DNA of 64,000 nucleotides from Candidatus Poribacteria bacterium (GTDB lineage Bacteria > Poribacteria > WGA-4E > JAJDTR01). Within the stretch, counting starts at the first letter, position 1; each line of letters begins with the position of its first letter. The position numbers and the translations under genes were made by a program. The notes under the pieces were generated by a model. That model was not told the DNA's origin, searched no databases, and saw only the letters and a list, made by a program, of their open reading frames with translations. The stretch is taken from positions 3,200,001-3,264,000 of the forward strand of contig CBDCTK010000002.1 in the NCBI GenBank assembly GCA_965222225.1. Direction: 5' to 3'. This document shows, piece after piece, positions 2,086 through 49,413 of the stretch.

Positions 2086-2096
2086 GACTTAGAGGC

Positions 2097-2118
2097 TGGT
2101 GGGCAGTGCCCACCCTAC
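2097..2118 (-). repeat. GTAG-type REP-like palindrome
   Basis: GTAG GGTGGGCA C TGCCCACC A on the minus strand; exact reverse complement of 25350..25371. Confidence 0.8.
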
Positions 2119-2120
2119 AA

Positions 2121-2178
2121 TATTCTGTCGGTTAATCCTTATTCTGTCGGTTGATCCTTATTCTGTCGTTAGATTCTT
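2121..2178 (-). repeat. Three tandem half-copies of the micro-element
   Basis: Plus strand tattctgtcggttaatc / cttattctgtcggttgatc / cttattctgtcgttagattc. Confidence 0.65.
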
Positions 2179-2876
2179 CAGTGGTTTGGGAGATTTAAAT
2201 CGCAGTTAATGCGTTACGACTCGAAAATTGCGTCGAAGCATGTCATAGCTTGGCTTCGTAGATGCTTTTGGCGTCGTGATTGAGTGTGCGAAATACTGCG
2301 ATAAACTGCGAATATGTCTTCGATCGCGTTCACCGCGGTACTGCGACGATTGCCCAAAACAGCGGCAGGCGCTCCGACTGGATGCCACCTAGATTCGCTC
2401 ATGCGCCGATAGTTTCGGCGCCGAAAAGGGACGAAACCCGGCGAACTGGAATAGCGGTTTAGACTCAGATTCGACATTTGGCTCAGTGGTCTTTTCTATT
2501 CTCACGTCACAAAGCGCGCACATAGGTGAACGAGTTCGACACTCGGCGGCATGCGTTGGAGGCGCGTACACTCTTTCAAAGACCGCGGGCAGCATTTGAC
2601 AGCGCCGTTTTAGAGGAAGCGCGAGTGAACGGAATCCAATTAAAACTGATGGGATTCTCGTCCCTGCAGCTCAACCCCAGAAGAAACAAGTGCACAACTA
2701 TCACTAGCCGGCATTGACGATTCGGCATCATTATACTATACCTCTGTATAGTTATCAATCTAAAACAATGGAGGAGTTGCCAGAGGGAAGTGATGGCTCA
2801 AGCTGCACATGAAATTGCGTTAATAGCTCAATCTATCCTTCGGAGACCGATTATTTTAAATACACATGTCGATATG

Positions 2877-25294: not shown

Positions 25295-25349
25295 GACATT
25301 CCTTTTACGGTTTATGGCACGAATTCTCGATTATCAGATCGAAGTTCTT

Positions 25350-25371
25350 GTAGGGTGGGCACTGCCCACCA
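25350..25371 (+). repeat. GTAG-type REP-like palindrome
   Basis: GTAGGGTGGGCACTGCCCACCA. Confidence 0.8.
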
Positions 25372-25458
25372 TTCCCGGTTGAGTTCATACTAATACCATT
25401 TCTATATATTTTCAGTGCATAAATTGCGTCAATCAAGTCGTTCCAAGGCAGGGCAAGG

Positions 25459-25508
25459 GGATCTCTATCGCGGTCGTTATCCACTCCCTTGATCTATTCG
25501 CTCAGTTT
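25459..25508 (-). mobile_element. Micro-element inserted into the left half of another copy
   Basis: Minus strand AA CT GA GC GAATA G[ATCAA GG GA GT GGATA AC GA CC GCGATAG AGATCC]C. Confidence 0.7.
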
Positions 25509-25565
25509 GCGCATCACGAGCACAATCTAACAGATTATGCTACAAAGGCGGCAACTTGGGTTATC

Positions 25566-25665
25566 TAACAAGTGAACGCCAATGTTCATTTTTTGTGCAA
25601 GAGGGGCGTTGGCAGATCTCGCAACAGTGCCTGTGTCTTACAAATCTGGTAGAGCACCAGTGCTG
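25566..25665. repeat. ~100 bp dispersed repeat, copy 1
   Basis: taacaagtgaacg.caatgttcat...ggggcgttggcag.tctcgc.acagtgcctg...tacaaatctggtagagcaccagtgctg recurs at 31774..31872. Confidence 0.8.
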
Positions 25666-25736
25666 ACCTACCCTCCTGCTGGTAATACCATTTCTTACAG
25701 TGATAGGGTATCAATGATGTGAATTTCAGAAAAAAA

Positions 25737-25801
25737 GCTATCGCCTTCGCTATGGGATCTTCTATCGCGTTCGTTATTCACTCACTTGATCTCAGTTGAT
25801 C
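25737..25801 (-). mobile_element. Nested micro-element pair
   Basis: Minus strand G ATCAA CT GA G[ATCAA GT GA GT GAATA AC GA AC GCGATAG AAGATCC]C ATA GC GA AG GCGATAG. Confidence 0.75.
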
Positions 25802-25857
25802 GGTTTTGGGGCAGATGGTTCTACTTTTTTAGGCTAATATAACAAAAATTTTTTAGA

Positions 25858-25886
25858 TTGATAACTTAACGTATGTGTGGTATATT
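25858..25886 (+). promoter_or_regulatory. Sigma70-like promoter, copy 1 of a duplicated promoter
   Basis: TTGATA-17 nt-TATATT; flanks match 26585-26620 (ttttagattga.aacttaac). Confidence 0.5.
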
Positions 25887-26093
25887 TTAGTAGAATTCAA
25901 GCGGTTATGCGAGAAAATTGACGCTTGCGAGATTTCGATAGGAGAAAAAGGCTATAGACAATTTGGATAGTTTGCCACAACAGCCTACCGAAAGACAATA
26001 TGTTTCTGTGTTGCTATCCCACAATGTACTGGCGGCATAGGCACTCAAAAACGGAGGTGCCCGCTTGCAGGATAATATTGGAGTCATTGGATT

Positions 26094-26384
26094 ATGACCG
26101 AGGAAAAAGATGTTGGCTTAAAGCAATGGGTACGCGAGATAGATAAAAAGGTGGATAACATACTTGAATTCATGCACAAGATGGAAGTCCATCTCGACTA
26201 CACATCCAAGCGTATCGATACCCAGTGCGAAAAGTTGGCAATTCAGGACAATCGGCTTAAAGCGGTCGAGGACGAAATCCAAAAGCACAAGGGGGAGCTC
26301 ACGATGCTCAAGTGGATTTTGTCCGGGATTGGCGTAATTGTGGCGGCGGCGGTTCCGATTGTTATGATAGCAAAAGGTGGTTAA
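26094..26384 (+). CDS. Small coiled-coil protein with C-terminal TM helix (XhlA/holin-like architecture)
   Basis: 96 aa; heptad-rich region followed by WILSGIGVIVAAAVPIVMIA. Confidence 0.55.
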   Translation: MTEEKDVGLKQWVREIDKKVDNILEFMHKMEVHLDYTSKRIDTQCEKLAIQDNRLKAVEDEIQKHKGELTMLKWILSGIGVIVAAAVPIVMIAKGG

Positions 26385-26477
26385 TAAAAAGAATAAACAT
26401 CTTTCCATAATGTCCCGGAACCCGACGGCATTACAGACAACCTCGTTGATCGCGGCTTGGACTTGGCAATACAAGCC

Positions 26478-26544
26478 AATCAGTCGACCAGATAGGAAGG
26501 GATCAACTGAACGAATAGTGAAGGCGATAGCAAATCATAGTCTC
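26478..26544 (+). mobile_element. Nested micro-element pair
   Basis: AATCAG TC GA CC AGATA GG AA GG G[ATCAA CT GA AC GAATA GT GA AG GCGATAG CAAATC]ATAG TCTC. Confidence 0.7.
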
Positions 26545-26591
26545 GATGAAAGTTACTATGAGAGTTTTATATATTTTTGATAATTTTTAGA

Positions 26592-26620
26592 TTGACAACT
26601 TAACATATATATACTATACT
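26592..26620 (+). promoter_or_regulatory. Near-consensus sigma70 promoter
   Basis: TTGACA-17 nt-TATACT in an AT-rich stretch. Confidence 0.6.
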
Positions 26621-26957
26621 TATGTATAGTATATTTTGGTAGTAGTTGATACTTCCGAAGTGATGGTTCCAAATTCTGTGTTTTTCATTTAGAGCTTGTT
26701 TCAAATGTACAAAGTCCAGCCAAGATGATGTCGACGAAATGGAGTCCAGCGGTTAAGTACCAGCAAAGTATGCGGCACAGTGCGAAAAGCAAGGCGGCAT
26801 TCTGCTTCAGTTTCAAGTAGATTCCTTTAGCATGTTTCATTTCAGAGCAATTTGCCGAATACCTTTCATGCTGTTTTATCCGCTACCCTATAAAGGGTGG
26901 CAATTTCAACCACGTAGCCTACATTGTAGGCTACGACTACCATAAGGAGGCAGCACA

Positions 26958-27203
26958 ATGCCAAACTCAGTTCACCCCGACTACCACGACAAGTGGCAAG
27001 GAAGTTGCGCGGTTGTAGGTATCTACCACACGAGCAACTCACCGGGAGAAATAACCGTGTACTCAACGCACACGTTTAATCTCTATAATAACACGACCAA
27101 GAAGCAGACGTTCAACTGCGAGTATAGTCATAAAAGGTTCGCCGCGGGCACTGAGAAACGGACACTACGACATAAACGAACGACTTCACCTAATGTTCAG
27201 TAA
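26958..27203 (+). CDS. Hypothetical protein (possibly a remnant)
   Basis: Perfect RBS TAAGGAGG before the ATG; 81 aa; no recognised family. Confidence 0.4.
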   Translation: MPNSVHPDYHDKWQGSCAVVGIYHTSNSPGEITVYSTHTFNLYNNTTKKQTFNCEYSHKRFAAGTEKRTLRHKRTTSPNVQ

Positions 27204-27362
27204 GGAATTATTGAAGCGAAACCAACGCGTATTCCTGGAAATACGTGGTACCGCCGACACTCGAAATCATGATGCCCCTAAACACGTTAATTGAATGGAA
27301 GTTTCTCATGTAAATGTTCAGCTACCAAATCTTTGCCCCCACCTTTCTTAGGAGACCACTGC

Positions 27363-27758
27363 ATGAAACGTCTATTCATTCAATCCCACTGTACCATGCT
27401 TAATCTAGACCACGTAAGTTCCATCCGAATTGAACCCGAATATATCAGGCCTGAATCCGGGGGTTATCGCGATCCCGGGGAACGCCAACGCACCGATTAC
27501 TACGTCGTTCACGCCGAAAACGTAGCTATATATCGATCGCGCATAGAGCAAAAGTGCGAAGAGTTTATGATGCGCCTCGGCAACGCCGTCTGCCGATCGC
27601 CTGCAGATGCGGTCATCATAGCCACAATCAATGGCAAATTCATGTACCGCGCGCCATCTGACAAGATTGTGCTAATCCCCGACGAACAGTTTCATGCGGA
27701 AATGGAACAGATCGCGACGTATGCCGAGTTGCCGGACGAGTTAGGACCGGAAGATTAA
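27363..27758 (+). CDS. Hypothetical protein
   Basis: AGGAG RBS before ATG 27363 (MKRLFIQ...); next ORF starts 6 bp after the stop. Confidence 0.5.
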   Translation: MKRLFIQSHCTMLNLDHVSSIRIEPEYIRPESGGYRDPGERQRTDYYVVHAENVAIYRSRIEQKCEEFMMRLGNAVCRSPADAVIIATINGKFMYRAPSDKIVLIPDEQFHAEMEQIATYAELPDELGPED

Positions 27759-27764
27759 AGAGCA

Positions 27765-28091
27765 ATGAACCCAATCATCGACATCCCGGCAGAGGAGACC
27801 TACTCCATCCCGGACATCGTCGACCGCCTCGTCCCCCTGGTCGACGGCGTCGCACACCACCGCGCAGAAAGCGAGCTCCGCTATTCCGCCAGCGACATCT
27901 ACTGGTTGCTCCGGGACATGTTGAAGCGGGCGAACAAAGACATCGAAGGCGAGTTCTACATGCAAAGACTCAAAAAAGGAGACTGGCGGCTCGCCTATCG
28001 CCGCAGAACAGCCGACGAACAGAAAGCCGATATGCGCCACAAACGCCAAGTCGACGACACAAAGAAGCTAATCGAACGCCTGAAGTTTTGA
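27765..28091 (+). CDS. Hypothetical protein
   Basis: 108 aa, GC3-rich codons, operonic spacing. Confidence 0.5.
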   Translation: MNPIIDIPAEETYSIPDIVDRLVPLVDGVAHHRAESELRYSASDIYWLLRDMLKRANKDIEGEFYMQRLKKGDWRLAYRRRTADEQKADMRHKRQVDDTKKLIERLKF

Positions 28092-28309
28092 AAGGAGGGG
28101 ATGCGTTATGCCTGTCTAGTGCGTTGTTTTCTTAGGGATATGCCCGACATGTAACAGCCTCGGCGAATCCACACGCCGGGGCTTCTTCGCAAATTGACAT
28201 TCTGCGGAAAAACCCCGTCTATTTGCGAAAAAATAGCCTGAGTTGCACCCTATGCCGCGATGAAAGCGGACTGAAAGTAACACGAACACCAGAAGGAGTG
28301 GTTTAATCA

Positions 28310-29161
28310 ATGAGAAAATTGTTGTGCGTTTCACTCGCTTTGCTCATCATATCGTTGTCCAACCTGTATGCCGCTTGGACCAGAGAATTCCAAGAGGGCT
28401 ACCAACTGTTGAAAGCCCTCGAAATGAATCAACTCGTCGTTGTCGGCCGCGTGTCCGGTATCGAGTATCTTACCCGTTCAAATATAAGGGGTAGCCATAC
28501 CACCGATGTTACCGTGACCGTGGACGAGACGCTCAAAGGCAGTCCGAACCTCGGCACGGATCGTGTCAAATTTATGATTAAGGGCGGTGTGGGAATCGAC
28601 ACGTTAACCGGAGAACCGATCCGCCTAAACGTTAGCTTCCAGCCCCACTTTAAACTCGGGGAGCGTGTCCTGCTCTTCCTTACCAACTCTGCCTCTAGAG
28701 ACCCCGATGCCGCCAATTACCCCCATGGTCGATACCGACTGGTGCGAGGTAAATTCGGCAAACGCCTCGTCGTCAACGGTAAGGTGTACATGCGCTATCT
28801 GGACAGCGACACCGGCAATACGCTGAAAGCTGTGGAATTGCCTCTCGATATGGCGGTAGACCTGGCAAAGGCGTTTAAGCGGGATAAAGACGCAGCCATC
28901 CTGCTCGAGAACAGCATAAAAGCGTTGGCGAAAAGCGCGGCAGATGATTTGGTCACGCTCGACTCCACCACCATCCAGAACATCAAAAGCGGCGCCAAAC
29001 AGATTCTCGATCGACCCGAAGGAGGGAATTACCATGTTCCGAACCATCGCTTTCACACTAATAGCCATCGCGATCTCGTGCGGCCTCGTATGGGCAACCT
29101 GTCACAACACGCCCGACTGTGCGGATTTAATCAACCACCTCGTTTCCGGCGACTATTTTGA
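28310..29161 (+). CDS. Secreted hypothetical protein (3' end uncertain)
   Basis: AAGGAG RBS and signal peptide; the last ~40 codons overlap the next gene, so the real stop may be near 29030. Confidence 0.6.
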   Translation: MRKLLCVSLALLIISLSNLYAAWTREFQEGYQLLKALEMNQLVVVGRVSGIEYLTRSNIRGSHTTDVTVTVDETLKGSPNLGTDRVKFMIKGGVGIDTLTGEPIRLNVSFQPHFKLGERVLLFLTNSASRDPDAANYPHGRYRLVRGKFGKRLVVNGKVYMRYLDSDTGNTLKAVELPLDMAVDLAKAFKRDKDAAILLENSIKALAKSAADDLVTLDSTTIQNIKSGAKQILDRPEGGNYHVPNHRFHTNSHRDLVRPRMGNLSQHARLCGFNQPPRFRRLF

Positions 29162-29594
29162 CGAGTCTAACAGCAATACCATAGACTACAATGTCAACAC
29201 AACGTACCACGCGGAAATGCCTAATTTAACCGCCGATGTGGACGTGGCGGCCGCGACGTGGTCCGAAGCCGAGCACACCGGACAAGAGATAGATTTTAAT
29301 CTCAATAACGCAGGTACCACAACTCAGCACGCCCACGTTCGAGATAATCGAAATGTGATCGCCTATGGCGGCACACTGCCAAGTGGATGGGCCGCCGGCG
29401 TCTATACCTGGATACAGAACGACGTCATCCTGGAAGCGGATATGATGTTCAATTACTATCTGGATTTCGAACTGCATCCGGATTGGCAGCAAGGCGATGT
29501 ATGCATCCGCAACGTGGCAACCCACGAATTCGGACACTTCGTCCACCTGCTCGATTTGGCCCGGGTTGCCATAGTTCACCCGGATAGGTCTTGA
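29034..29594 (+). pseudogene. Matrixin-like secreted Zn metalloprotease, C-terminally truncated
   Basis: GGAGG RBS, signal peptide, EADMMFN, VATHEFGH; fused to IS630 sequence just after HLLDL. Confidence 0.65.
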
Positions 29595-30297
29595 CTGCAA
29601 TTGGCCCCATTTCATCAATGCAAATTGTTCGCGTGTCCGGTGGAGGCGCGATGTACGCCGAAATTATGGCCCCCTTTTTTCCACGAACTGTTCGTCCTGT
29701 TTTTCCGCATTATGAAACCAACTCTGCTGACGTTTCCAATTCAGCCCTTCTTCAGTTATCCAGCTCCATATTGTTGAATCGGAGAGATGAATCCCTTCTC
29801 TTTCTTTGAAGCTAATTTGCAGACGTTCTAGCGTCCACAACTCAAATGGATAATCCAGACTCGACGGTCTTTGCATCGCTAAATCAATCAGTTTACTGCG
29901 AACCTCTATCGAATGCGTTTTCGGTGCGCCGCTCCGGGGTTTATCAGCAAGTCCTTCAATGCCTTCGTCGTTGAAGGGATTTTCTATCGCGCTCCTTATT
30001 CAGTCGCTTGATCGCTTAATCCATTGCGCTCCGGAAACCCCCGTTTGAATCCAGCTTGTAGGGCGGCTTTGGAACTCGTTAGTTGGTTGTCATCAATCAT
30101 ATTGACGATGAGTTGAGCTCTTTGGACGAGCTGGTGAGATTGGGTACGTGAGTTAGCTAGAGTCCTAAGTTGGTGTTCTTCTGTTTCACTAACCGTACGA
30201 ACATAATGAACTCGTTTTCCCATTATGAATTCTCCTTTCCATTTCGGTTGAATGGGCAGGAGAATTATATCATAATTACTTGCCGAGAGAACCACTA
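29548..30297 (-). mobile_element. IS630-family transposase remnant
   Basis: Reconstructed MGKRVHY...QRAQLI...[22 protein letters not shown]...WTLERL...EK(A6G slippery site at 29674-29680)GAII...ICIDEMGP; TA end at 30296-30297; remainder of the DDE domain missing. Confidence 0.85.
29977..30012 (-). mobile_element. Single 36-nt micro-element inserted in the IS630 ORF
   Basis: AAGCG[ATCAA GC GA CT GAATA AG GA GC GCGATAG AAAATCC]CTTCAAC; removal restores W-I-K-R-F-N-D-E-G. Confidence 0.85.
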
Positions 30298-30379
30298 AGT
30301 ATCCAGCCGAAAATTAGAAGGTCACGTGCCATGATGTTACTCCAACTTAAAAATGTCCGATAACAAACCGTATCGGACG

Positions 30380-31470
30380 TTATTGTTTTATAGCCCCCCA
30401 CGTTGTAGCGGCTTTGGCGTAGGGGTTGACGACGGGAATCGAGGCGCGGAAGATGCCCCCGATGCTGTGTGGGAGGTAGAATCCTTGTTCTTCGTCCAGG
30501 GCGTAGAAAGTACGGCTAGCGGTGGCGTAAAGCCGGTCTTGATGGGATATCAGCTGACCGACACCGAACTCCGGCAGGCCGGCGGGAAACCAGGTTTCGT
30601 AGCGGTCGTCAAACACCCAGATTCCCTTTTTCCGAAGCCCGGCGAAGATACGGCCGCGATGGACGGCGAGGGCCGAGATCCTCGGCTCGTGCGGCAGTCC
30701 GGCGCTAAGATCGTCCCACGCGAGTTCGCCTTCGTCCCAGCGCCCAAAGGCGTATGCGGCGCCGACGTATAAGCGATCGTCATGCGCCAGCCAATCGCCC
30801 GGCGCTCCGTAATCGGTGAGGGCACGGCGGTGGCCGCCCCAAATTGGCATCAGTTCCCATGTGTCGCCCAGGTGGGGGTACGGTATAGGTCGGGGAAACC
30901 GACAAAGGCGGAGGCCCAGAGGTAGCCGTCGAACTCGGTCATCGTATGGCTACGAAAAGCGATGTGAGTTGACACATGCGGGCCGACGTGCACCCACTCC
31001 TCGTACGGGTAGTGCCAGGTCTCGCCTCGATCGCGGGATATGTGTGTGCCGGAGTGGTAGCCCACGGCGACGACCATACGGGATTCCGTGACGAGTATTT
31101 GGTTAATATAGGGGTGGTAGATGGGGCCGTCTATGCGATCCTCCTTATCAAGCCTGGTCAGACCGGCGTTTTTTGGAGCCCATGTCTCGCCGCAGTCATC
31201 GGATCGAAACATCCCGAATTCGGTGCCGGTATAGGCGTACACGGCATCGTCGCCGATTCCAAGGCAGTACACGCGGTGCGTCATGCCGGTCGGGCGCCAG
31301 GTGTCGCCGTCATCGTCGGAGATGTAGAGTCCGGTCCGGTCGGCGGCGTAGAGGCGTTCGCCGTCGCTTTCAAGCAGCGCCGCATCAATGTTGGGCAGGA
31401 ACTCCCAGTCGGCGCGGGCGCAGGCGGTCATGAGCAGGGCGATGGCGAGAATTGGGTATAGTGTTTTCAT
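30380..31470 (-). pseudogene. Secreted BNR/Asp-box beta-propeller protein with one frameshift near 30874
   Basis: Signal peptide MKTLYPILAIALL; Asp-boxes SDDDGDTW, SDDCGETW, SRDRGETW; adding one base gives LGDTWELMPIW... ending VNPYAKAATTWGAIKQ. Confidence 0.7.
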
Positions 31471-31773
31471 TTTATCCTTTCGGCGCGGATATTCGCATCC
31501 GATTCGTTCGCTAACATAGTCATCGTTACTACGAAAATGAAAGCGGTTCGCATTAAACGTCGAGTCCACATCATCGGAACGTCTCCCTTGGAGCTGATGG
31601 TTATCGGATTGATTGCGTTATTGGAGTGTATGCAAGTTATGCGCCACTATCTATCACGCGCCAAGGCTGTCCTAGTCCATAAGTTACCCTGAATTGGCAC
31701 GATCCCACGAATTGCATCAAACTCGCCCCCCGATGTGTCATGGAAACTCAATGGCGTTTCGTGATTTCGTGTA

Positions 31774-31872
31774 TAACAAGTGAACGACAATGTTCATATT
31801 ATGTACAAGGGGGCGTTGGCAGTTCTCGCTACAGTGCCTGGGTGCTACAAATCTGGTAGAGCACCAGTGCTG
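31774..31872. repeat. ~100 bp dispersed repeat, copy 2
   Basis: Direct-orientation match to 25566..25665 with scattered substitutions. Confidence 0.8.
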
Positions 31873-31902
31873 GCTTAACTAGCGGTAGGTTCGGCTGAAA
31901 AT

Positions 31903-31961
31903 GGATCTCTATGGGATTTCTATCAGGATTTGCTATCGCATTCGCTGTTCGCTCATTTGAT
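31903..31961 (-). mobile_element. Micro-element followed by two orphan 3' ends
   Basis: Minus strand G[ATCAA AT GA GC GAACA GC GA AT GCGATAG CAAATCC]TGATAGAAATCC CATAGAGATCC. Confidence 0.7.
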
Positions 31962-31980
31962 CGCCACGGGCGCTCTTAAA

Positions 31981-32042
31981 GGCTGGTGTGATCTCTATCG
32001 CGCTCATTATTCATTTGCTTATGATCGCAGTGCGCACCCTAC
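31981..32042 (-). repeat. GTAG REP palindrome interrupted by a 37-nt micro-element (31989..32025)
   Basis: Removing 31989..32025 restores GTAG GGTGCGCA C TGCGCACC AGCC, the same family as 2093..2118. Confidence 0.8.
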
Positions 32043-32145
32043 GAATGTACAGATCCAAGCTAACTGCGTAAATCCTATAAGTGAAATTCTTAATTGAAAT
32101 GGCCATAACCACGAACCACCAGTCACTGACCACTGTCTTTTCGAG

Positions 32146-33417
32146 CTACAGTTGAGCGCGTTTTACACCGTGCGTGAGCCTTCCGGTGGTGCCGTAAAAC
32201 GGATCGTCCTTATCCAAGGGCAGCGTCACCGGCTGGCGCTCCTCGGCAGATTTGTATATCGCTCGCACTACCTCCACATGGTGGCGCGGCACATCGATCG
32301 GCACGAGCGGCTCCGTGTTATCAGCAATGCTTTCCAAGAAGAGTCGGCTCTGATAGGCTTCGGTCGCGGTTTCCGGGACACCCTCCACCTCCGACCTTAG
32401 GTTTTCCAACGCCTCTACCACAGCCGGATTGTCGCTCGATCCGAACGTGGTCTCTGCCCGCCAATAGTTGCTCCTCCCCAATCCCGTGTTATGCGGAGGA
32501 GAGTAATAGGCTTCACCAACCAACATAGAGGCGTCGTAACCCAATACTTCGATGCGCCCTTCCGGTGTCAGCGGCTGTTTGTGGTTTAGCAGAGACGCAT
32601 GGATGCTGCCGGTTGCGCCGTTGTCGAACTTGACGACTGCCTGACTTAGGCTCTCGTGTTCAATCTCGCGCAGCGTAGGTCCCGAATAAGCAAAGATTTC
32701 CACGATTCGCGAACCGAGTACCCACAAGAACGGATCGATAATGTATCGGCCGTGATGGAACGAGGCTCCGCCTCCCTCACCATCCCATGTGCCGTGCCAG
32801 CGCTTGTAGTATCGTTGTGGACGATACCAGTTCAGTTCTACGCGAGCGCTGCCGATTTTGCCGAGTTTCCCGCTTTCCGCAACTTTACGCGCCAGAACCA
32901 TCCCCCGCGGGTAGCGAGCGCCGCACTGGGAATGAAATTTGACTCCCGTTTTCCGAATGGCTGCTGTCATGGCATCAGCCTGCGCCACGCTGCACGCCAT
33001 AGGGCCCTGAGTGAAGACATGGCGCCCCGTTTCAGCCGCGGCAACCGTCGGTTCCTGCCGTATCGGGGGCGGCGTGAGCAGCACTATTGCCTGCACGTCA
33101 CTATCCTTGAGCAACTCTTCATGAGTGCGATACTTCCGAATCTTTGTCCTAGCGGCGGTTTCAGCCGCTTCCACCATTTGTTGCCGACGCTCGCGTTCCT
33201 CAGGGGTGCGCGCCTCCGAAAGCATCATTCGCGCACGATGGGCTTCCATGGCATACCCCTCGCTGAGCGTAGTTCGCTTCCTTTCAGCCAGTTCATCTAC
33301 GAAATCTGCGACCGCTACCACCTGCGCGATGTCTACCAGACTTGCATAGATGTCCGCGTACAGCCGCGAGATTCCTCCGCATCCGACAAACCCGACGCGA
33401 ATTCGTTCATCTGTCAT
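32146..33417 (-). CDS. Gfo/Idh/MocA family oxidoreductase
   Basis: RVGFVGCGGI Rossmann motif, GRHVFTQGPMA, WHGTWDGEGGG, AIYKSA. Confidence 0.88.
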   Translation of the reverse strand: MTDERIRVGFVGCGGISRLYADIYASLVDIAQVVAVADFVDELAERKRTTLSEGYAMEAHRARMMLSEARTPEERERRQQMVEAAETAARTKIRKYRTHEELLKDSDVQAIVLLTPPPIRQEPTVAAAETGRHVFTQGPMACSVAQADAMTAAIRKTGVKFHSQCGARYPRGMVLARKVAESGKLGKIGSARVELNWYRPQRYYKRWHGTWDGEGGGASFHHGRYIIDPFLWVLGSRIVEIFAYSGPTLREIEHESLSQAVVKFDNGATGSIHASLLNHKQPLTPEGRIEVLGYDASMLVGEAYYSPPHNTGLGRSNYWRAETTFGSSDNPAVVEALENLRSEVEGVPETATEAYQSRLFLESIADNTEPLVPIDVPRHHVEVVRAIYKSAEERQPVTLPLDKDDPFYGTTGRLTHGVKRAQL

Positions 33418-33514
33418 ATCGATTTCTCCTATTTTCCGGTAAAAGTAACGGGCAATGAATGGGATAAGATGGGATTTTCAAAATGTATAGCAACGCCGAT
33501 CGCATGCACACTAA

Positions 33515-33735
33515 AGTCCCAGCGGGGCGACACTTGGATAGCGACCAAATCAAAAATATCAGCTGTGTGGTTGTTGTAGCATTTTCTGTTGAATTCTGAG
33601 GAGTTCGGATTGCCTATCATTCATAATTTTTCCTTGTTTGAACGATGCATTGAGACACGATCCACCTGTCGCCCCTCCGGGGCTTGGGGATGAGAACATT
33701 CGCTGTTTCTATACACCTGTCGCGCCGCTGGCGCT
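33515..33735. repeat. Three copies of a second REP-like hairpin family
   Basis: cacctgtc-gcccc-tcc-ggggc-t (33663..33684), ctatacacctgtc-gcgcc-gct-ggcgc-t (33709..33735), and an inverted copy at 33515..33541. Confidence 0.65.
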
Positions 33736-33828
33736 GTACGGTGCGAAACCTATAAAGCCAACAACATCTGCATGGTTACTTTCATCCTGAGGAGATCGAA
33801 GGATTTTAGATGCGATTGCCCTGCTGCT

Positions 33829-35760
33829 CTACGGGAATAATGTATACATATTCTTGCTAAGGATCACGGCAATTAGGCTCCACAGACTGCCAGCGAGAAA
33901 TTGACCGAAGATTAAGCCGAGGAAGAAGGGCAATGCGCGGCGATAGGATTTGACCCCGCCGCCGGCAAACAACAGCTGCTTGAACAACCAACCGAGAAAG
34001 ATAGAAAACCACAACCAACCCATCGCCCAACCGTCACCCACTGCGTATCCCACGGGGTAAAAGGGCCACCACAGGAATCCTTTTTTGAGTATGGTCAGGA
34101 TAATCGTAAATACAAACCCGAAGGTCATGTGCTGAATTGAAGCGATGTCCGTCGTTTGGGGAAATGCAATCCAGTTTTGAAGACGCCCAAACTCGCCGAC
34201 ACCCCAGCGTTGAAACTGATACTTGTGGTAAATGGCGACATGCGCGCCGATTGACATGATCGCGCCAACGATTGACGCCACAATCATTGCCACAACCAGG
34301 CGATTCTCACTCAATTTGAAGGACGATCCAATTTTGAATCCTTCTAACTGATGGGGCATCGGATGAGAACGATAGCCGTACGCCAACCACGACAAAAGTG
34401 TGGTGTTCGTCAAATTCGCGGCGCCGAGAGGCCTCGTCCCCATGAACCATACCATCATCTGATCCGGATGCGCGCCGTGCAACTCGTGCGTTGGGGGCCC
34501 GAGTTCCGCTCGCATTCGCGTGATTGCGGTGCAGAGCACATAATAGATAACGAAGTAGCTAATCACCACCCAAGGTGACAGACCGGCAAGAAGCCAGAAG
34601 ACCACGACGAATGTTATTCCTAGAACCAGACCGACCACGGCAAACGGGTATAAGGGGTCGGCGTCCCTGTTGGTAAACATCCCGCGTAAACCGCGCATGA
34701 TATGCCGTCTGCTCGTCCAAACAGCCATAACTCCGATGCCAATCCAAGCGCCTGCCCGTTGTTGTGTCTGCATAGCTGAGGCGGTCGTCCAACCCGTCGC
34801 GTTGAAAAAGACATCTTGCGCCTGCCAAAACAGAAAGAAGAGCCATAACGACAACGACAAATCCAGGGGCATCAGATACCCGAATCCAATAGCGAAGGGG
34901 TAGACGTAAACTGGCAACACCCCCACTCCGCCCCAACCGATGGTGTTCCACGGTTTCTCGGTAAACTGAATAATATACTTCGCTTTCAGAGCAGGAACAA
35001 TGGGATAGAGAAAATTGAAGCCGGCAAGGATCTCTAGCGTAAAAGCAAGCCCAAAACTAATCCAGATAAATTTGTTGGAGAACAGTCTTGACGTGTTGCC
35101 GATGACTTCAACGGGCATCACCGTCAGCGGATAACTCAGTTTTTCATGCTCTATCCACTGCTTCCTGATGATTATGTTCATGCAGAGCATCACGAAAAGC
35201 AGCACTATTACGAGCGCGGTCCACGCTAGCACTGGCGTCAGCCACGCATTGAGATAATCGGCAGTCCAAAAACTCTCAAACGCGCTCTTGTCGCCCTCGA
35301 AATAACCTTGCAAGATACGTCGATTCTCGACGGCAAGCCATGTTGGAATGAATCGAAAAAAAAGATCTTCCCACTCATTCTCCGGAGTTGCGTACCAGAA
35401 GGGATTCGCCATCAACGGTACCAACTGCCGGATGATGTCGTGCCCGGCAAGCGCCGTCGCAACGGAAACCATGATGTAGGTCATCGCTAGTTCGGCTTCG
35501 CTCAGCGCCAGACCTTTGAAAAAGCGCTTTAACAGCAGATTGACGCCCGCCAAACTGAATAGCGTAAAAAGCACCGTGGGAAAGATGGAAAAGTCCGTTA
35601 GCTCATAGACAACTCGATTCTCTGCGGATATAATCCAGTAACAGTTGAGGATGATTAGGATAGATCCGAAAATAAGCGTCCGGACGATGAAGCGGCCCGT
35701 TGTGCTCGTATCCGCATGAGTTAAAGTGTCTTTTCCCTGTCTCATAGTATCTATTTGCAA
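33829..35760 (-). CDS. Polytopic membrane protein, DUF6785/DUF6784-like, paralogue of 23381..25294
   Basis: WIEHEKLSYPL, RMRAELG, PMPHQLEG, WWPFYPVGY, YRRALPFFLGLIFG; start may be ATG 35745. Confidence 0.75.
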   Translation of the reverse strand: MQIDTMRQGKDTLTHADTSTTGRFIVRTLIFGSILIILNCYWIISAENRVVYELTDFSIFPTVLFTLFSLAGVNLLLKRFFKGLALSEAELAMTYIMVSVATALAGHDIIRQLVPLMANPFWYATPENEWEDLFFRFIPTWLAVENRRILQGYFEGDKSAFESFWTADYLNAWLTPVLAWTALVIVLLFVMLCMNIIIRKQWIEHEKLSYPLTVMPVEVIGNTSRLFSNKFIWISFGLAFTLEILAGFNFLYPIVPALKAKYIIQFTEKPWNTIGWGGVGVLPVYVYPFAIGFGYLMPLDLSLSLWLFFLFWQAQDVFFNATGWTTASAMQTQQRAGAWIGIGVMAVWTSRRHIMRGLRGMFTNRDADPLYPFAVVGLVLGITFVVVFWLLAGLSPWVVISYFVIYYVLCTAITRMRAELGPPTHELHGAHPDQMMVWFMGTRPLGAANLTNTTLLSWLAYGYRSHPMPHQLEGFKIGSSFKLSENRLVVAMIVASIVGAIMSIGAHVAIYHKYQFQRWGVGEFGRLQNWIAFPQTTDIASIQHMTFGFVFTIILTILKKGFLWWPFYPVGYAVGDGWAMGWLWFSIFLGWLFKQLLFAGGGVKSYRRALPFFLGLIFGQFLAGSLWSLIAVILSKNMYTLFP

Positions 35761-35876
35761 GCGTTGAGGGCAGTGTCAGTGATTTCGATCCGAGGTGTTT
35801 ATGGCAGGCAGATGAGGGGAGTTGCAAGCACAAGCAGCTTGTAAACACTCCACTGACCACTAATCACTCTGCAGTA

Positions 35877-37460
35877 TTACTGATCATTACCCATTCTCTC
35901 GGACCAATCACGCCATGCACTTGCCATCTGATCCATGATCTCTGGATGCTTCCGCCCCAAGTCCTTCGATTCTGTGCGGTCTGTTTCGAGGTCGTAGAGC
36001 TCCCAATTTCTCATGTCCCCGAGATTGCCGCGTCCAATGCTTTTCCAGTTTCCGTGCCGTACCGCTCTGTTGCCGCGGTGCTCCCAGAACAGCCAGTCAT
36101 GCCCTTCTCGATGATTGCCTTGGAGAATGGGTATGAGGCACTTTCCCGCACAGGGAGTGAGTTCTCGTCCGTTGTACTCCCTAGAATACTCAATGCCAGC
36201 TGCCTCGCAGAGCGTGGGTAGGATGTCCATTGCGTGTCCAAATTCGTGGGTAATGGCTCCCCCGCCACTGGTGACACCGGGCCAACGAACGACAAGCGGT
36301 GAGGCGATACCGCCTTCGTACAAACTGCCCTTGAAACCGCGCAACGGGGTGTTGTGCAGAGAACCCCACCCGGGTCCAGGCGAGCAGTAGGTGCCAATTC
36401 CGCCGGGGATAATATCCGGTCTATCGCGTTCCTCATTCTCGTACCCATCGCCGCCGTTATCCGACAAAAAGAGGACAATGGTATTCCGGTCCGCGCCGCA
36501 ATCCCCGAGAGCCTGTAGAATGCGTCCAATCCCCTGATCCATGCAGTCAATCATGCCCGCGTAGATCGTCATGCGTAAATCCTGCCACTCCTTATGTTCC
36601 TCGTTAGCCCATGAAGGAAGATTCGGAACACGATCCGGCAACCGAATTTCCGGGTTCAACAATCCCATGCTGAGTTGCCGTTCGTAGCGATTCCTTCGCA
36701 GTTCCTCCCATCCCGCCATGAATTTTCCGCGATACTTTTCGACATCTTCCCGTTTTGCTTGGAGCGGGCTATGCGGCGTCAAATGGGCAACGTAGGCGAA
36801 AAACGGATCTCCCTGTTTGCTGAAACGCTTGATTGTTTCAACCGCATGATCGTTAATCGCATCGGTGAGATAATAATCCTCGGGAAACTCTGACACAACT
36901 TCCTCATTGTGCATAACCGGAGGTCGAAAGCCTACGAATTTAAGATCGCGCAACGCCGGATTGAAATAGTTCGATGGAATATCGGCAAAGCCGTAATACT
37001 CGTCAAAACCCCAGTCTAACGGACTGCCCTGCACCGGCACATTCCATTTTCCGCTGATGGCGGTACGATAACCCGCCGAACGCAGGAGTTGCGCGACAGT
37101 GACTAGATTCGGAGATAATCGAGTGTTTCGCTCATCCACGTAACAATATAACCCGGTCATTAGCGAGGCGCGAGAGGGAACGCAGACCGGATTAACGCAG
37201 AACTGGCTGAAACGCAAACCTTCGGCAGCCAGCCGATCCAGGTGCGGCGTTTCGATTTCGCCCCCGTAACAGCCCGCATCCGACCAGCCCATGTCGTCCG
37301 CCATAATCAGAACGATGTTCGGCTTATCCGTCTCTGCCGCAGCCCCGTTCTTTCCTCCATTGGAAGCGGCATTAACGGCAAATGGTGCGAACGCCGATGC
37401 CGTAGCTGCACCCCCGGCCAGCCTTAGCAATTCTCGTCGAGTCAGTTTATTCCCCGCCAT
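35877..37460 (-). CDS. Tat-exported arylsulfatase
   Basis: TRRELL twin-arginine signal, PNIVLIMADDMG, CVPSRASLMTG (CxPxR), SDNG, ELYDL. Confidence 0.92.
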   Translation of the reverse strand: MAGNKLTRRELLRLAGGAATASAFAPFAVNAASNGGKNGAAAETDKPNIVLIMADDMGWSDAGCYGGEIETPHLDRLAAEGLRFSQFCVNPVCVPSRASLMTGLYCYVDERNTRLSPNLVTVAQLLRSAGYRTAISGKWNVPVQGSPLDWGFDEYYGFADIPSNYFNPALRDLKFVGFRPPVMHNEEVVSEFPEDYYLTDAINDHAVETIKRFSKQGDPFFAYVAHLTPHSPLQAKREDVEKYRGKFMAGWEELRRNRYERQLSMGLLNPEIRLPDRVPNLPSWANEEHKEWQDLRMTIYAGMIDCMDQGIGRILQALGDCGADRNTIVLFLSDNGGDGYENEERDRPDIIPGGIGTYCSPGPGWGSLHNTPLRGFKGSLYEGGIASPLVVRWPGVTSGGGAITHEFGHAMDILPTLCEAAGIEYSREYNGRELTPCAGKCLIPILQGNHREGHDWLFWEHRGNRAVRHGNWKSIGRGNLGDMRNWELYDLETDRTESKDLGRKHPEIMDQMASAWRDWSERMGNDQ

Positions 37461-37550
37461 TCTATTCTCGCCCATTTCCTCACATTGAGATCCTGTTTGA
37501 AAACTAGATGGAAAAGTCATTTAGGGCATTTGGAGTGATAGTACCTGCGA

Positions 37551-37698
37551 GAGTTCTATCGATCAACCGAGTGAATAGCGAGGGCGATAGCAAATCCTGC
37601 TCATTTGATCTATTCGCTCGGTTGAGGGATCTCTATCGGAATTTGCTATCGCGTTCCCTATTCGGTCACTTGATCCCTCCTTATTCAGTCGGTTGATC
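37551..37698. mobile_element. Composite of at least five micro-element copies in both orientations
   Basis: Plus-strand unit 37562..37597; minus-strand nest G ATCAA CC GA CT GAATA AG GA GG G[ATCAA GT GA CC GAATA GG GA AC GCGATAG CAAATTC]CGATAG AGATCC; additional half units. Confidence 0.8.
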
Positions 37699-39559
37699 CC
37701 ACGGTATCGACAAAGCTTGTATACCCGGGCCCACCGGCGCCCACATAGCCATGACTCGCGCCGGATTCGTCCGGGCTTACCCAAAACGAATAGAGCTCCC
37801 CCAGCCTCAGATGAAAGCGAAATTTAACGGGTTCACCCGCCACGCTTGATAGGTCGGCTCCGCCTTTCCACTCCACCCGATGCGATGTTCTGTTGGCCGT
37901 GAGAGGCACACAGTTATCCACTGTGAACGGCTCAACGACGTTGCCATCCTCATCAAGTACCTCCACCCGCAGTTCACCTTGATCGCAGTCCGTGTTCGCA
38001 AACAAGTACTTACCGGAAAACTTGAGCGGCCTTGTCGTCAGTGTACCGGTGTTCCGGACCGAGCCCATAGAGGCGAACCCGTCGCGCCTCAAGAACGCAA
38101 GCCCCGTATTCACGAACCCGTCCCATAGCTTTCCCTTTTCCGGGAGGTTGCGCCCCGTGAAATACAGGTACAATTTATCTCCGACAACCAGACACGCACC
38201 GCTTGCCGACTGTACATTTCCCCAGTTCCATGCGCCGGGGCTTTCCGTTGCCTCAAAAAAAGGCCGGCGATCCGGGCGGTCGTAATGGAACCCGTCCCTG
38301 CTGTAACCGAGCAGCACCTCGTTCCGCTTCGGTATGTGTTTTACGTGGCACACGTCGTTATCCGGCCCCTGCCAAATCGAAAAGTACCCAAGCATTAAAC
38401 TCTCATAGGCGACCGTGTCGAAATGATACAACTGCGGCAATATTTCTGCACTATCCGGGTTCGGGTTGCGAGGATCGAGCCGGTCCGCACCCAGCCACGG
38501 AACCACCTCACCACCAGGTCTAACCTCTGCCAATTTCACGGCTTCGACAGGGGTATCCCCCTCAACGTACGCACGCGCCCGACCGGTCTCTCGTCCACTG
38601 CGTATGTTAATAATCCACTTGTCCCGGAAGGGGTTGTAGTGCGCGTTCGTGTGGTCCCCGACCACCCCTGCTGAGCTGGCTATCGGCTCAGACCAGTGTA
38701 TGCCATCGGCTGAAGTCCTGTAGGCAACAGCGGAGTCTTCACCGAGGCGCTCAGGTAAGCCTATATGCCACGTTGTGTAGAAAATCTTGTATCGGGCTAA
38801 CCGGTCGCTGGTGTCGTAGTCAATCCAAACGCTTGTGGTATCAATCGGTCGTATGTGCTTCTTTTCTGGCCACTGCGGCGGTATCGGCGGCAACTCCACC
38901 CCGTGGTCAATCACGATGTTCGTTCCCGGCAGCACGTCCTGCTCGGTCTTCTCCCAGTGAACCCCATCCTTGGACGTTGCGTAACAACTGTACTTGATGT
39001 AACCGCCGACGTACCACATCTTGAATAGCTCGTCCTTCGGGTCGTACCAGACGCCGCCGCTGAAGGGACCGGCAAAGGGCGCGGGCCCATGATGTTCCCA
39101 CTCCCTGTCCGGCTTGATGATCGGGTTTCCCTCGTAGTAGGTTGGCTGGTGGAACGTGCGTTGCAGCGTGGTCTCCTCAATCAAGAAATCGTCCACGAAT
39201 AGTTGTCTTCCAACGTCAATGTTGATAACCTCGGGCGGATTTTCGAGATACGGGACAGGCATCGGATCCCGCGTCCATCCGCCGTAATCCGGCGGCCATT
39301 TCTCAGGCAGAACGATACCGTTGTAAAGTTCCTCGCCTGTGTCGTTCTGCTTGTCCTTCATTCTTACCTCCGATTGTCCTTCTCGCCCGGAATCTTGGTC
39401 GGTTTCCGTGACCGCAGCGAGCACTATGTGAGGACCAGATTTGCTGGAAATGTATTCTGTCGACGAACCTGATGGGGCGTTCCCGATCGCCATGGTATTC
39501 ACGAGCCAAACGCCCACAAAAGCTACCCCAAGGATTCCGTAGATTTTAATCGTTCCCAT
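37685..39559 (-). CDS. Secreted GH32/GH43-like five-bladed beta-propeller protein
   Basis: GRQLFVDDFLI, YATSKDGVHWEK, YSRDGFHYDRP, LRRDGFASM, LYSFWV; start taken at MGTIKIY. Confidence 0.75.
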   Translation of the reverse strand: MGTIKIYGILGVAFVGVWLVNTMAIGNAPSGSSTEYISSKSGPHIVLAAVTETDQDSGREGQSEVRMKDKQNDTGEELYNGIVLPEKWPPDYGGWTRDPMPVPYLENPPEVINIDVGRQLFVDDFLIEETTLQRTFHQPTYYEGNPIIKPDREWEHHGPAPFAGPFSGGVWYDPKDELFKMWYVGGYIKYSCYATSKDGVHWEKTEQDVLPGTNIVIDHGVELPPIPPQWPEKKHIRPIDTTSVWIDYDTSDRLARYKIFYTTWHIGLPERLGEDSAVAYRTSADGIHWSEPIASSAGVVGDHTNAHYNPFRDKWIINIRSGRETGRARAYVEGDTPVEAVKLAEVRPGGEVVPWLGADRLDPRNPNPDSAEILPQLYHFDTVAYESLMLGYFSIWQGPDNDVCHVKHIPKRNEVLLGYSRDGFHYDRPDRRPFFEATESPGAWNWGNVQSASGACLVVGDKLYLYFTGRNLPEKGKLWDGFVNTGLAFLRRDGFASMGSVRNTGTLTTRPLKFSGKYLFANTDCDQGELRVEVLDEDGNVVEPFTVDNCVPLTANRTSHRVEWKGGADLSSVAGEPVKFRFHLRLGELYSFWVSPDESGASHGYVGAGGPGYTSFVDTVGSTD

Positions 39560-49330: not shown

Positions 49331-49348
49331 TTTCAACTACGCGTTACG

Positions 49349-49413
49349 ATCAAACGAGTGAATAGCGAGTGCGATAGAAGATCCCATAGTAAATCCCGTG
49401 CGATAGCAATCCC
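49349..49413 (+). mobile_element. Micro-element plus two orphan 3' ends
   Basis: G[ATCAA AC GA GT GAATA GC GA GT GCGATAG AAGATCC]CATAGTAAATCC CGTGCGATAGCAATCC. Confidence 0.75.

Follow-up and report, generated by a model that had tools for sequence, protein, structure and literature searches.

The 37-nt piece at positions 31989-32025 of the window, the whole 64,000-nt stretch of Poribacteria DNA analyzed here, probably (roughly three chances in four) belongs to a mobile micro-repeat family and stands as an insertion within a REP. The locus is best explained by a micro-element, non-coding and non-autonomous, of which an old and slightly decayed copy lies in a class-A GTAG REP. Very small mobile repeats such as REPs and SDRs are common, and how they move is largely unknown. 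The micro-element offers an unusually readable record of such movement: each genome holds about 1,000 copies, filled/empty pairs run to dozens, the junctions have a clear polarity, the hairpin is proven by covariation, and the invaded REPs share its replication-strand bias. These features make the spread of a micro-repeat testable as predictions about strand, primer and junction. The micro-element also breaks or lengthens genes, having split one RAYT gene and added 11 and 24 codons to two others, and its units are a marker for strain-level variation in uncultured sponge symbionts.

A GTAG palindrome interrupted by 37 nucleotides

Window positions 31981-32042 are made up of three pieces: GGCTGGTG (31981-31988), the 37-nt piece (31989-32025) with TGATCTCTATCGC at its 5' end and TTATGAT at its 3' end, and CGCAGTGCGCACCCTAC (32026-32042). 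When the 37 nt are excised, the two flanks join into the 25-mer GGCTGGTGCGCAGTGCGCACCCTAC, which on the minus strand reads GTAG followed by GGTGCGCA-C-TGCGCACC and AGCC, a perfect 8-1-8 palindrome after the GTAG tag. The earlier note had claimed that excising 31989-32025 restores a GTAG palindrome, and this is borne out by the same 25-mer standing intact at 54 other places in the whole 5.70-Mb genome. The host is likewise confirmed as a GTAG REP that is present intact elsewhere: beyond the 54 exact copies, a regular expression for the looser class, GGTG[CG]GCAnTGC[CG]CACCCTAC, finds 126 intact copies genome-wide. The 3' half of the REP gives 220 matches in the genome, and class-A copies number 76-273 per genome in all nine same-genus genomes. 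As in other GTAG REPs, where the tag directly precedes a palindrome of 20-40 nt, GTAG lies directly 5' of the palindrome once 31989-32025 is set aside, and the copies of the interrupted host palindrome are dispersed and mostly intergenic. The sister REP proposed at 2093..2118 exists and is uninterrupted, but it ends at 2117. The features of the locus are as follows.

31903..31925, plus strand: two stacked unit 5' heads (GGATCTCTAT, then GGGATTTCTATCA) without the 3' remainder, read from the sequence
31926..31962, plus strand: neighboring full-length unit, 27 nt upstream of the split REP (hmm 1-37, E 5e-07)
31981..31988, minus strand: split REP, distal end; the minus strand reads CACCAGCC
31989..32025, plus strand: micro-element copy, 37 nt (nhmmer match 31990-32020, E 9e-05)
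32026..32042, minus strand: split REP, GTAG-proximal part; the minus strand reads GTAGGGTGCGCACTGCG
32146..33417, minus strand: upstream gene, an oxidoreductase-like ORF of 423 aa (sub-threshold NCBIfam matches only, to Gfo/Idh/MocA-type dehydrogenases)
2093..2117, minus strand: uninterrupted sister REP, a GGGC/GCCC stem variant

The split REP lies about 100 nt past the stop codon of the oxidoreductase-like gene and has the polarity of that gene, which is conserved in 9/9 same-genus genomes. Stacked 5' heads of units, like those at 31903..31925, occur at other loci too.

The contribution of chance was gauged from 100,000 random genome positions, each tested for the presence elsewhere of its two 12-nt flanks, 33-37 nt apart, joined directly (12+12). 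Such a join was found for 13 of them versus 76 of the 845 copies of the micro-element family. The split-REP observation is thus real and far beyond chance, since the random control gives so few joins.

The micro-element family

The family consensus is RRRATYT-CTATCGC-nn-TC-nn-TATyC-nn-TC-nn-TTGATC, with a length of 35-37 nt. Its fixed core of 30 nt comprises CTATCGC (positions 0-6), 17 nt and TTGATC (24-29), and is preceded by the purine-rich head RRRATYT. A regular expression finds 845 strict copies in the genome, 432 of them distinct, while nhmmer returns 1,073 profile matches with E up to 0.01 and 1,419 with E up to 1; all except three lie on the chromosome. These strict copies, together with the profile match over 31990-32020, uphold the identification of the 37 nt as an inserted member of a micro-repeat family. 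Across the 845 copies, conservation begins at -7 (G 65%) and ends after +29 (C 92%), with drops at -8 and +30. After ...TTGAT, 779 of the copies have C, 54 have T and 12 have G.

Two statements about the left end did not survive. The base before ATC had been described as almost always G; ATC/ATT is preceded by G in 503 and by A in 305 of the 845 copies. The boundary of the window copy had been placed at G|ATC, which conflicts with the excised interval itself, as 31989-32025 begins TGATC.

Profile matches number 14 in the 64-kb window. Besides those at the locus, they include the following units.

25458..25494, plus strand: full unit, inside a GCGGGGCAAG...CCCCGC-type hairpin context
29977..30013, plus strand: full unit
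37561..37597, minus strand: full unit
37640..37698, plus strand: nested pair, one unit having entered the other behind CTATCG; the 3' remainder of the invaded unit is at 37675-37698
49348..49384, minus strand: full unit

No Rfam family matched window positions 25000-38000, which hold eight units; at E<=1 the search gave just an unrelated sRNA model at 25160-25261 (E 0.43).

Filled and empty sites

The exact 12+12 comparison yields an empty counterpart elsewhere for the 76 copies given above. BLAST searches for split HSPs extend this to 151 of 858 near-full copies, with 92 empty sites resolved to the base. A net gain of 33-37 nt is seen at 84 of these 92, in 52 distinct contexts. Targets include class-A REPs at two sites, GGTG^CGCAG (site 1) and CAGTG^CGCACC (site 2), at least four further GTAG REP families and a GCCCC...GGGGC hairpin. 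The element also inserts into its own copies, after CTATCG, after CGCAC or after CTAT.

Units are also found in frame inside protein-coding genes. One example is an ORF of 2,418 codons (C2:2917913-2925169) with 72 extra nucleotides that end in a canonical unit and are absent from six same-genus genomes, one of which has flanks 98-99% identical. The empty site reads ...CCGA|ACTTGATCC..., a 7-nt likeness to the 3' end of the unit. This is not a clean gain of a single unit, in that the last 37 of the 72 extra nucleotides are the unit, the first 35 are unrecognizable, and the 9 nt before them also differ. A second example is a gene family in which three paralogues carry a unit, a net gain of 33 nt in frame at GGG^C, and two are empty. 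Taken together, the paralogous-repeat pairs, the one orthologous pair (against six genomes) and the one gene-family case show that the 35-37-nt repeat is a discrete insertion module.

The junctions have a clear polarity. Target duplication is absent from the 52 distinct empty-site contexts, as the earlier note implied, and microhomology is just 0-3 nt: 34 contexts have none, 12 have 1 nt, and three each have 2 nt and 3 nt. The constant 3' junction reads TTGATC, its last 1-4 letters (C, TC or GATC) coming from the target. At the ragged 5' junction, the first gained base falls anywhere from -4 to -8, and purines of the element often stand in filled copies where the target had its last 1-3 bases. 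For instance, GCAGTG at REP site 2 has become GCAGGG in most filled copies and is unchanged in a few, and among self-targets CTATCG has become CTATGG.

The net breakpoint at the window locus is G^C, as originally read, and 29 of the 52 empty sites are also G^C. The wider proposal of a G^Y target rule holds in its second letter, with Y at +1 in 50/52 contexts (C 36, T 14), and more weakly in its first, with G at -1 in just 31/52. Part of this -1 G signal stems from the element's own purine-rich 5' end, by which 1-3 bases of the target are often overwritten. No fixed word stands at positions -6 to -2 of the 52 empty sites. An origin of the insertions by cutting and ligation at GATC was considered and rejected: it predicts a 31-nt gain at GATC sites, whereas the gains are 33-37 nt and fall mostly at sites without GATC.

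REPs as targets and the history of the window copy

The use of REPs as targets was counted over 1,127 units with an intact 3' end. Site 1 is adjoined by 33 units with 21 distinct variable cores, and site 2 by 58 units with 30 cores, one of which occurs 23 times. The mirror of site 1 has no units, and the mirror of site 2 has six doubtful matches that lack a unit-like 5' part. The unit thus enters REPs in one orientation only. A palindrome offers the same local word on both strands, and the single orientation therefore reflects strand rather than sequence.

For the window locus, a different history has to be weighed, in which no insertion took place here. A REP already carrying its unit would have spread as one composite through the process that mobilizes REPs or the longer repeat to which it belongs, and the empty-site reconstruction would record an older event elsewhere. 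The core GCTCATTATTCATTCGC is found in 8 of the 33 units at site 1 and a one-letter variant in two, the window copy and one more, while the same core accounts for only 17 of 845 copies genome-wide. A core common to the same REP site at eight or more other loci means that a REP-plus-insert composite may have spread as a unit. Indeed, the composite recurs at no fewer than 12 loci with 85-92% identity over 63-70 nt, and its upstream context (unit, small hairpin, TTTCAAAGGCTGG) is repeated too. However, the junction dinucleotide before GATC is G-T in the window copy and A-G or A-A in the eight others, the right flanks differ among composites, and the other 21 site-1 units have 19 further cores, so that the site has been hit repeatedly. 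Spread as a composite is accordingly a reading that comes close to even odds without reaching them, and it concerns this locus alone.

Whichever route brought it, the window copy is an inserted unit whose state can be read against the consensus. It carries two additional nucleotides, AT, ahead of its final GAT, has T for C at the second invariant TC, and has T instead of the family's purine at -6. With these three departures and all four covarying pairs intact, it is therefore an old copy. An empty allele of the locus was not found in the same-genus relatives, where the orthologous spacer is not alignable, or in four public runs. In genome G005 this spacer is occupied by another REP family, which has a unit of its own, and G000 has about 6.3 kb at the locus that is absent from G005. 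Contigs of public runs X3, X5, X9 and X13, from four studies, all bridge 31989-32025 in the filled state, and no joint skips it. At this locus the insertion is fixed and no longer canonical, and it may have arrived already inside the REP.

Two side observations concern these runs. The rows marked "2 left out at 32020" stem from paralogous copies with loose ends. One of the bridging contigs (run X9, record 28) comes from a metatranscriptome library; a contig in an RNA library does not show transcription.

An interrupted hairpin supported by covariation

Among the 432 distinct copies, mutual information is high only for the position pairs 7-23, 8-22, 11-19 and 12-18 (0.67, 0.79, 1.04 and 0.31 bits), with all remaining pairs of variable positions at 0.15 bits or less. 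Watson-Crick cells make up 80% of these pairs, compared with 13-28% when the partner is slid by 1-3 columns and at most 43% in 500 column shuffles. The paired dinucleotides are separated by the invariant TC/TC mismatches, which are tandem G.A on the complementary strand. On the plus strand the non-Watson-Crick cells are mostly A.C (212), fewer being G.T (40), and the complementary strand therefore carries G.T wobbles. The four variable dinucleotides thus covary as an interrupted hairpin that is favorable on the complementary strand.

Folding energies agree weakly with this structure. With RNA parameters the covariation structure has -4.99 kcal/mol on the minus strand versus -0.85 on the plus strand, and the minimum free energy of the minus strand is -5.15 versus -4.77 for shuffles, so that shuffled sequence is about as stable as the hairpin. 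DNA parameters predicted no stable fold for the ten strands tested (z about 0). A pairing that is shown by covariation and not by energy suggests a hairpin that is protein- or process-bound.

Strand bias and taxonomic spread

The orientation of the units follows the sign of local GC skew in 593 of 855 cases (69%), rising to 73% where |skew| > 0.02. When same-strand neighbors are merged into 633 clusters, 67-70% agree, and the bias is present in every class of flanking-gene arrangement. Intact class-A REPs share it, with 94/126 (75%) in agreement. The link to replication is drawn from GC skew. In the usual reading of skew, the C-rich strand has the sequence of the nascent lagging strand. On that reading, the folding strand of the micro-element, which starts GATCAA, lies mostly on the C-rich strand and hence corresponds to nascent lagging-strand sequence.

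Within the phylum, the family is confined to a minority of genomes. All nine same-genus genomes have 280-770 pattern matches each, and each of the four genomes of g4, one genus of another family, has 110-130. In the phylum, 19 of the 176 genomes searched have any match and 157 have none. Five low-count genomes have 1-13 copies (up to 19 with one mismatch), in three of them on short contigs only. These genomes were considered as a pointer to the source of the element and set aside, since their copies lie on short contigs, are probably binning carry-over and give no clue to an enzyme. In a prokaryote scan with one genome per species, all of the matches listed (80 of at least 125 stretches) are Candidatus Poribacteria. 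The class-A REP, among the phylum genomes searched, is restricted to the genus of the window except for one match elsewhere, and the element therefore does not depend on that REP. The host genome is that of a sponge-symbiont member of the Poribacteria, with about 1,000 units per genome.

It is also conceivable that the unit is not mobile at all. It would then be a functional motif, such as a protein-binding site, a terminator or an RNA-stability element, that selection maintains and that owes its dispersal to recombination or slippage between repeats. Its unpaired positions are almost invariant (94-100%) while the paired ones covary, as for a selected structure; 875 of 1,070 copies lie between proxy ORFs; and tandem arrays exist, such as one with a 38-nt period at C2:1578440-1578590. 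However, the contexts of the units exceed 50, are unrelated and have no homology in their flanks, and units also lie in frame within genes and break a RAYT gene. Orientation shows no bias relative to flanking genes (255 sense versus 317 antisense in co-directional spacers), and the distribution joins two genera of different families while sparing 157 of 176 phylum genomes. A purely functional, immobile motif is thus very improbable.

Candidate machinery and mechanism

For a mobile element without a gene of its own, the host genome was searched for enzymes. It encodes five Y1 (PF01797) proteins, none of whose genes is bracketed by units. The first gene, C2:3080260-3080739, is of the IS200 type and has a GCCCC-TCY-GGGGC hairpin repeat on its flanks in this genome and in three relatives. 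Two further genes are RAYT-like and have flanking GTAG REPs that belong to classes other than A (GTAGGCAYAC..., GTAGGAGCGATC...); no Y1 gene was seen between two class-A REPs. A unit has broken the fourth, a RAYT gene, and the fifth lies next to no repeat. Units lie near only two of the five, the broken gene and the gene with the GCCCC-TCY-GGGGC repeat. The latter was rejected as a driver suggested by neighborhood, the units beside it being incidental and the gene going with its own hairpin repeat.

The element could nonetheless be a REP-like substrate of a Y1/HUH tyrosine transposase (RAYT or IS200-type) that acts in trans. Acting on single-stranded DNA, such an enzyme would recognize the interrupted hairpin, make its cuts in the GATC-containing ends and join the released 35-37-mer to single-stranded targets at the replication fork, as is thought for IS200/IS605 elements and REPINs. 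The hairpins at IS200/IS605 ends also have conserved mismatches, and the covariation-supported hairpin of the micro-element fits this pattern. Lack of target duplication, an orientation bias with GC skew equal to that of GTAG REPs and sharp element boundaries, which suit an excised discrete molecule, point the same way. So does the presence of Y1 genes in all element carriers of the same genus (9/9) and of g4 (4/4). Yet Y1 genes are also present in 3/3 g6 and 5/6 g3 genomes that lack the element, and none of the five genes here has units as its own bracketing repeat. The ragged 5' junction with overwritten target bases is unlike precise HUH cleavage, and a conserved target word of 4-5 nt 5' of the insert is absent from the 52 contexts. 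A Y1/HUH enzyme in trans is therefore on balance unlikely, but it is a serious candidate.

The polarity of the junctions, with 1-4 nt of 3' microhomology and variable, sometimes extra 5' bases, would also fit retroposition. In such a process a plus-strand small RNA would be reverse-transcribed from its 3' end at a target nick (target-primed). The metatranscriptome-library contig of run X9 spans the locus, which agrees with an RNA but does not show transcription. The only RVT_1 match in the genome is an ORF of 679 codons that scores as an AbiA-type defense reverse transcriptase (PADLOC PDLC03741, E 4e-76) and was set aside as a driver; no retroelement-type reverse transcriptase was found in the genome. 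In addition, 3/9 same-genus and 2/4 g4 genomes have no RVT_1 match, so that several element-bearing genomes lack one. The folding, G.T-tolerant strand is moreover the complement of the presumed RNA. Retroposition is the least probable of the readings.

A parent IS with unit-like ends was also sought. Among 455 inverted unit pairs 0.5-4 kb apart there are four small clusters with similar interiors, none of them multi-copy, and no such parent emerged. Among the genes examined (Y1, RVT_1 and IS with unit ends), no enzyme is tied to the micro-element.

The mechanism preferred here, put forward tentatively and with the odds somewhat against it as a whole, is that new copies would be made as single-stranded DNA in step with replication. 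The strand starting GATCAA would be synthesized first, primed by a microhomology of 1-4 nt to GATC. Synthesis would end at the purine-rich end, with imprecise rejoining. The actor may be a host polymerase that switches templates or a Y1/HUH enzyme in trans. A constant 3' junction that bears microhomology, a ragged 5' junction that overwrites the target and the strand bias together fit such primer-started, replication-coupled synthesis of the GATCAA strand. The sharp 5' boundary of the element is hard to obtain from a chromosomal donor by template switching and argues for a discrete donor molecule or a programmed stop, which keeps the Y1/HUH enzyme in trans as a serious rival.

A bolder and rather improbable version of this replication-coupled synthesis is a replicator that needs no transposase. 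The template would be a discrete single strand of about 37 nt, or the chromosomal copies, and nascent lagging strands would take up a copy whenever a 3' end with G, GA or GATC as its last letters switched to the element's TTGATC end. The polymerase would be ejected at a fixed point by the tandem-G.A hairpin just made, and imprecise re-annealing would follow. If true, this would be a new, enzyme-poor form of DNA mobility and would explain micro-hairpins in many phyla without a partner gene.

Comparison with known systems

Full-text literature searches on small dispersed repeats, Poribacteria REPs and REP/RAYT strand bias gave no description of the micro-element. Despite several likenesses, it falls outside REPs, MITEs and the IS200/IS605 elements by the features that define each of these groups.

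REPs and REPINs are associated with RAYT (Y1 HUH) transposases and are short, non-coding, intergenic hairpin repeats with hundreds of copies (Bertels & Rainey 2011, PMC3116915; Di Nocera et al. 2013, PMC3733652). The same papers report that REP-type repeats are sometimes found in frame in genes or inside other small palindromes, and that G.T pairing in the stem is used to argue for the folding strand (PMC3116915; PMC3733652). The micro-element resembles them in being short, hairpin-forming, non-coding, present in many copies and sometimes located in genes or other palindromes, and its strand bias equals that of the genome's own GTAG REPs. However, the consensus of its 845 copies has no GTAG or CGTC tag, the nearest likeness being GATAG on the folding strand, 3' of the hairpin. 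Its hairpin consists of four stems of 2 bp or shorter broken by invariant mismatches, unlike the near-perfect palindrome of a REP. No Y1 gene is bracketed by the micro-element, and REPs serve as its targets.

A comparison with insertion sequences that target REPs bears on this last point. In the account of Tobes and Pareja 2006 as cited in later work, elements of the IS1397 type prefer REP hairpins, which they enter at fixed positions and in one orientation. The micro-element does likewise, but the invader is only 35-37 nt long and has no gene, no inverted ends and no target duplication.

The orientation of IS200/IS605 elements is tied to the direction of replication. Their single-strand transposition creates no target duplication and needs a folded single strand, according to PMC6006769. 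The micro-element is similar in lacking target duplication, in having a hairpin that folds on one strand and in an orientation that follows GC skew (69-73% of units, 67-70% of clusters). In contrast, it does not have left and right subterminal hairpins on one strand, its 52 sites hold no conserved tetranucleotide target, and it has a ragged 5' junction. It neither contains nor adjoins TnpA, and its folding strand is mostly the C-rich strand.

Unlike MITEs, the micro-element has ends with only GATC in common, with neither terminal inverted repeats nor duplication in the 52 contexts, and a parent IS with the same ends was not found in the genome. It also differs from target-primed retroelements, the sole RVT_1 match of the genome being the AbiA-type defense enzyme.

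Rickettsia palindromic elements (RPEs) are longer than the 35-37-nt micro-element. They occur in frame within genes (Ogata et al. 2002, as cited in PMC3733652). The micro-element is like them in being a small repeat tolerated in frame in coding sequence, with gains of 33 nt and 72 nt here. It is unlike them in its shorter length, going by the usual size of RPEs, its unrelated lineage and its mostly intergenic location.

The small dispersed repeats of Nostocaceae, SDR1-8, reportedly described by Elhai and colleagues in 2008, are said to be 21-27 nt long and inserted in other repeats. They are also said to form predicted hairpins, to have no known enzyme and to be restricted to their lineage. 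The micro-element, at 35-37 nt, is longer than the 21-27 nt ascribed to the SDRs and belongs to another phylum. It is nevertheless like the SDRs in measuring a few tens of nucleotides, inserting into other repeats, having a predicted hairpin and being restricted to its lineage.

Repeat arrays and chromosomal orientation

The micro-element, a dispersed hairpin repeat of 35-37 nt, also occurs in an array in the window's own genome (G000, chromosome contig C2). Successive cores in this array are linked by GATCCTACAAGA, and the variable core differs from repeat to repeat. Another tandem repeat immediately follows the intact sister of the split class-A REP, a GTAG-tagged palindrome.

G000:C2:1578440-1578590, head-to-tail array of at least four micro-element cores, 38-nt period
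Window 2119-2180, short TTCTGTCGGTTRATCCTTA-like tandem repeat, period about 19 nt, 3 copies

Over the whole contig the sign of the GC skew flips repeatedly: it is positive at 0-0.8, 2.4-3.2 and 4.2-4.6 Mb and negative in between, and micro-element orientation tracks these patches. The patchy skew could reflect large rearrangements or assembly joins.

Comparison with other genomes

Two conserved genes are separated by about 6.3 kb in G000 (window 25393-32124) versus 439 nt in the same-genus genome G005 (C1:5915792-5916231). Within the extra sequence, window 29549-30301 corresponds to a multi-copy segment of G005 and is probably the insertion sequence that the earlier note named IS630. A giant-gene stretch (G000:C2:2920690-2921890; G005:C1:4390903-4392031) is 98-99% identical between these species-level genomes, whereas the remaining genes compared are only 82-89% identical; recent exchange of the stretch is possible. 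Five same-genus genomes carry ORFs resembling a reverse transcriptase-like ORF of G000.

G000:C2:4499563-4501599, 679-codon ORF matching an AbiA-type defence reverse transcriptase (PADLOC PDLC03741, E 4e-76)

Genomes of other genera with just 2-19 micro-element copies hold all of them on a few short contigs (G057:C72, C83, C91 and C116; G146:C61 and C362; G010:C38, C42 and C43). This distribution suggests that the copies were carried over from co-resident Poribacteria during binning and are not truly present in these genomes.

Tyrosine transposase genes beside repeats

Two HUH tyrosine transposase (Y1) loci of G000, one of the REP-associated type (RAYT), lie beside repeats.

G000:C2:3560213-3560573, RAYT-like gene represented by its C-terminal half, with an open frame of 92 codons
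G000:C2:3080260-3080739, outside the window, IS200-type Y1 gene (NCBIfam NF033573, 65.8 bits)

A stacked head and a full micro-element cut off the RAYT-like gene at the 5' end of this half, and the element appears to have broken the gene. The IS200-type gene is flanked, in G000 and in three relatives, by the hairpin repeat GCCCC-TCY-GGGGC / CCGCTCC-nnn-GGAGCGG, which is also contained in a long repeat ending in the class-A REP. This gene and its hairpin look like a separate Y1/repeat pairing.
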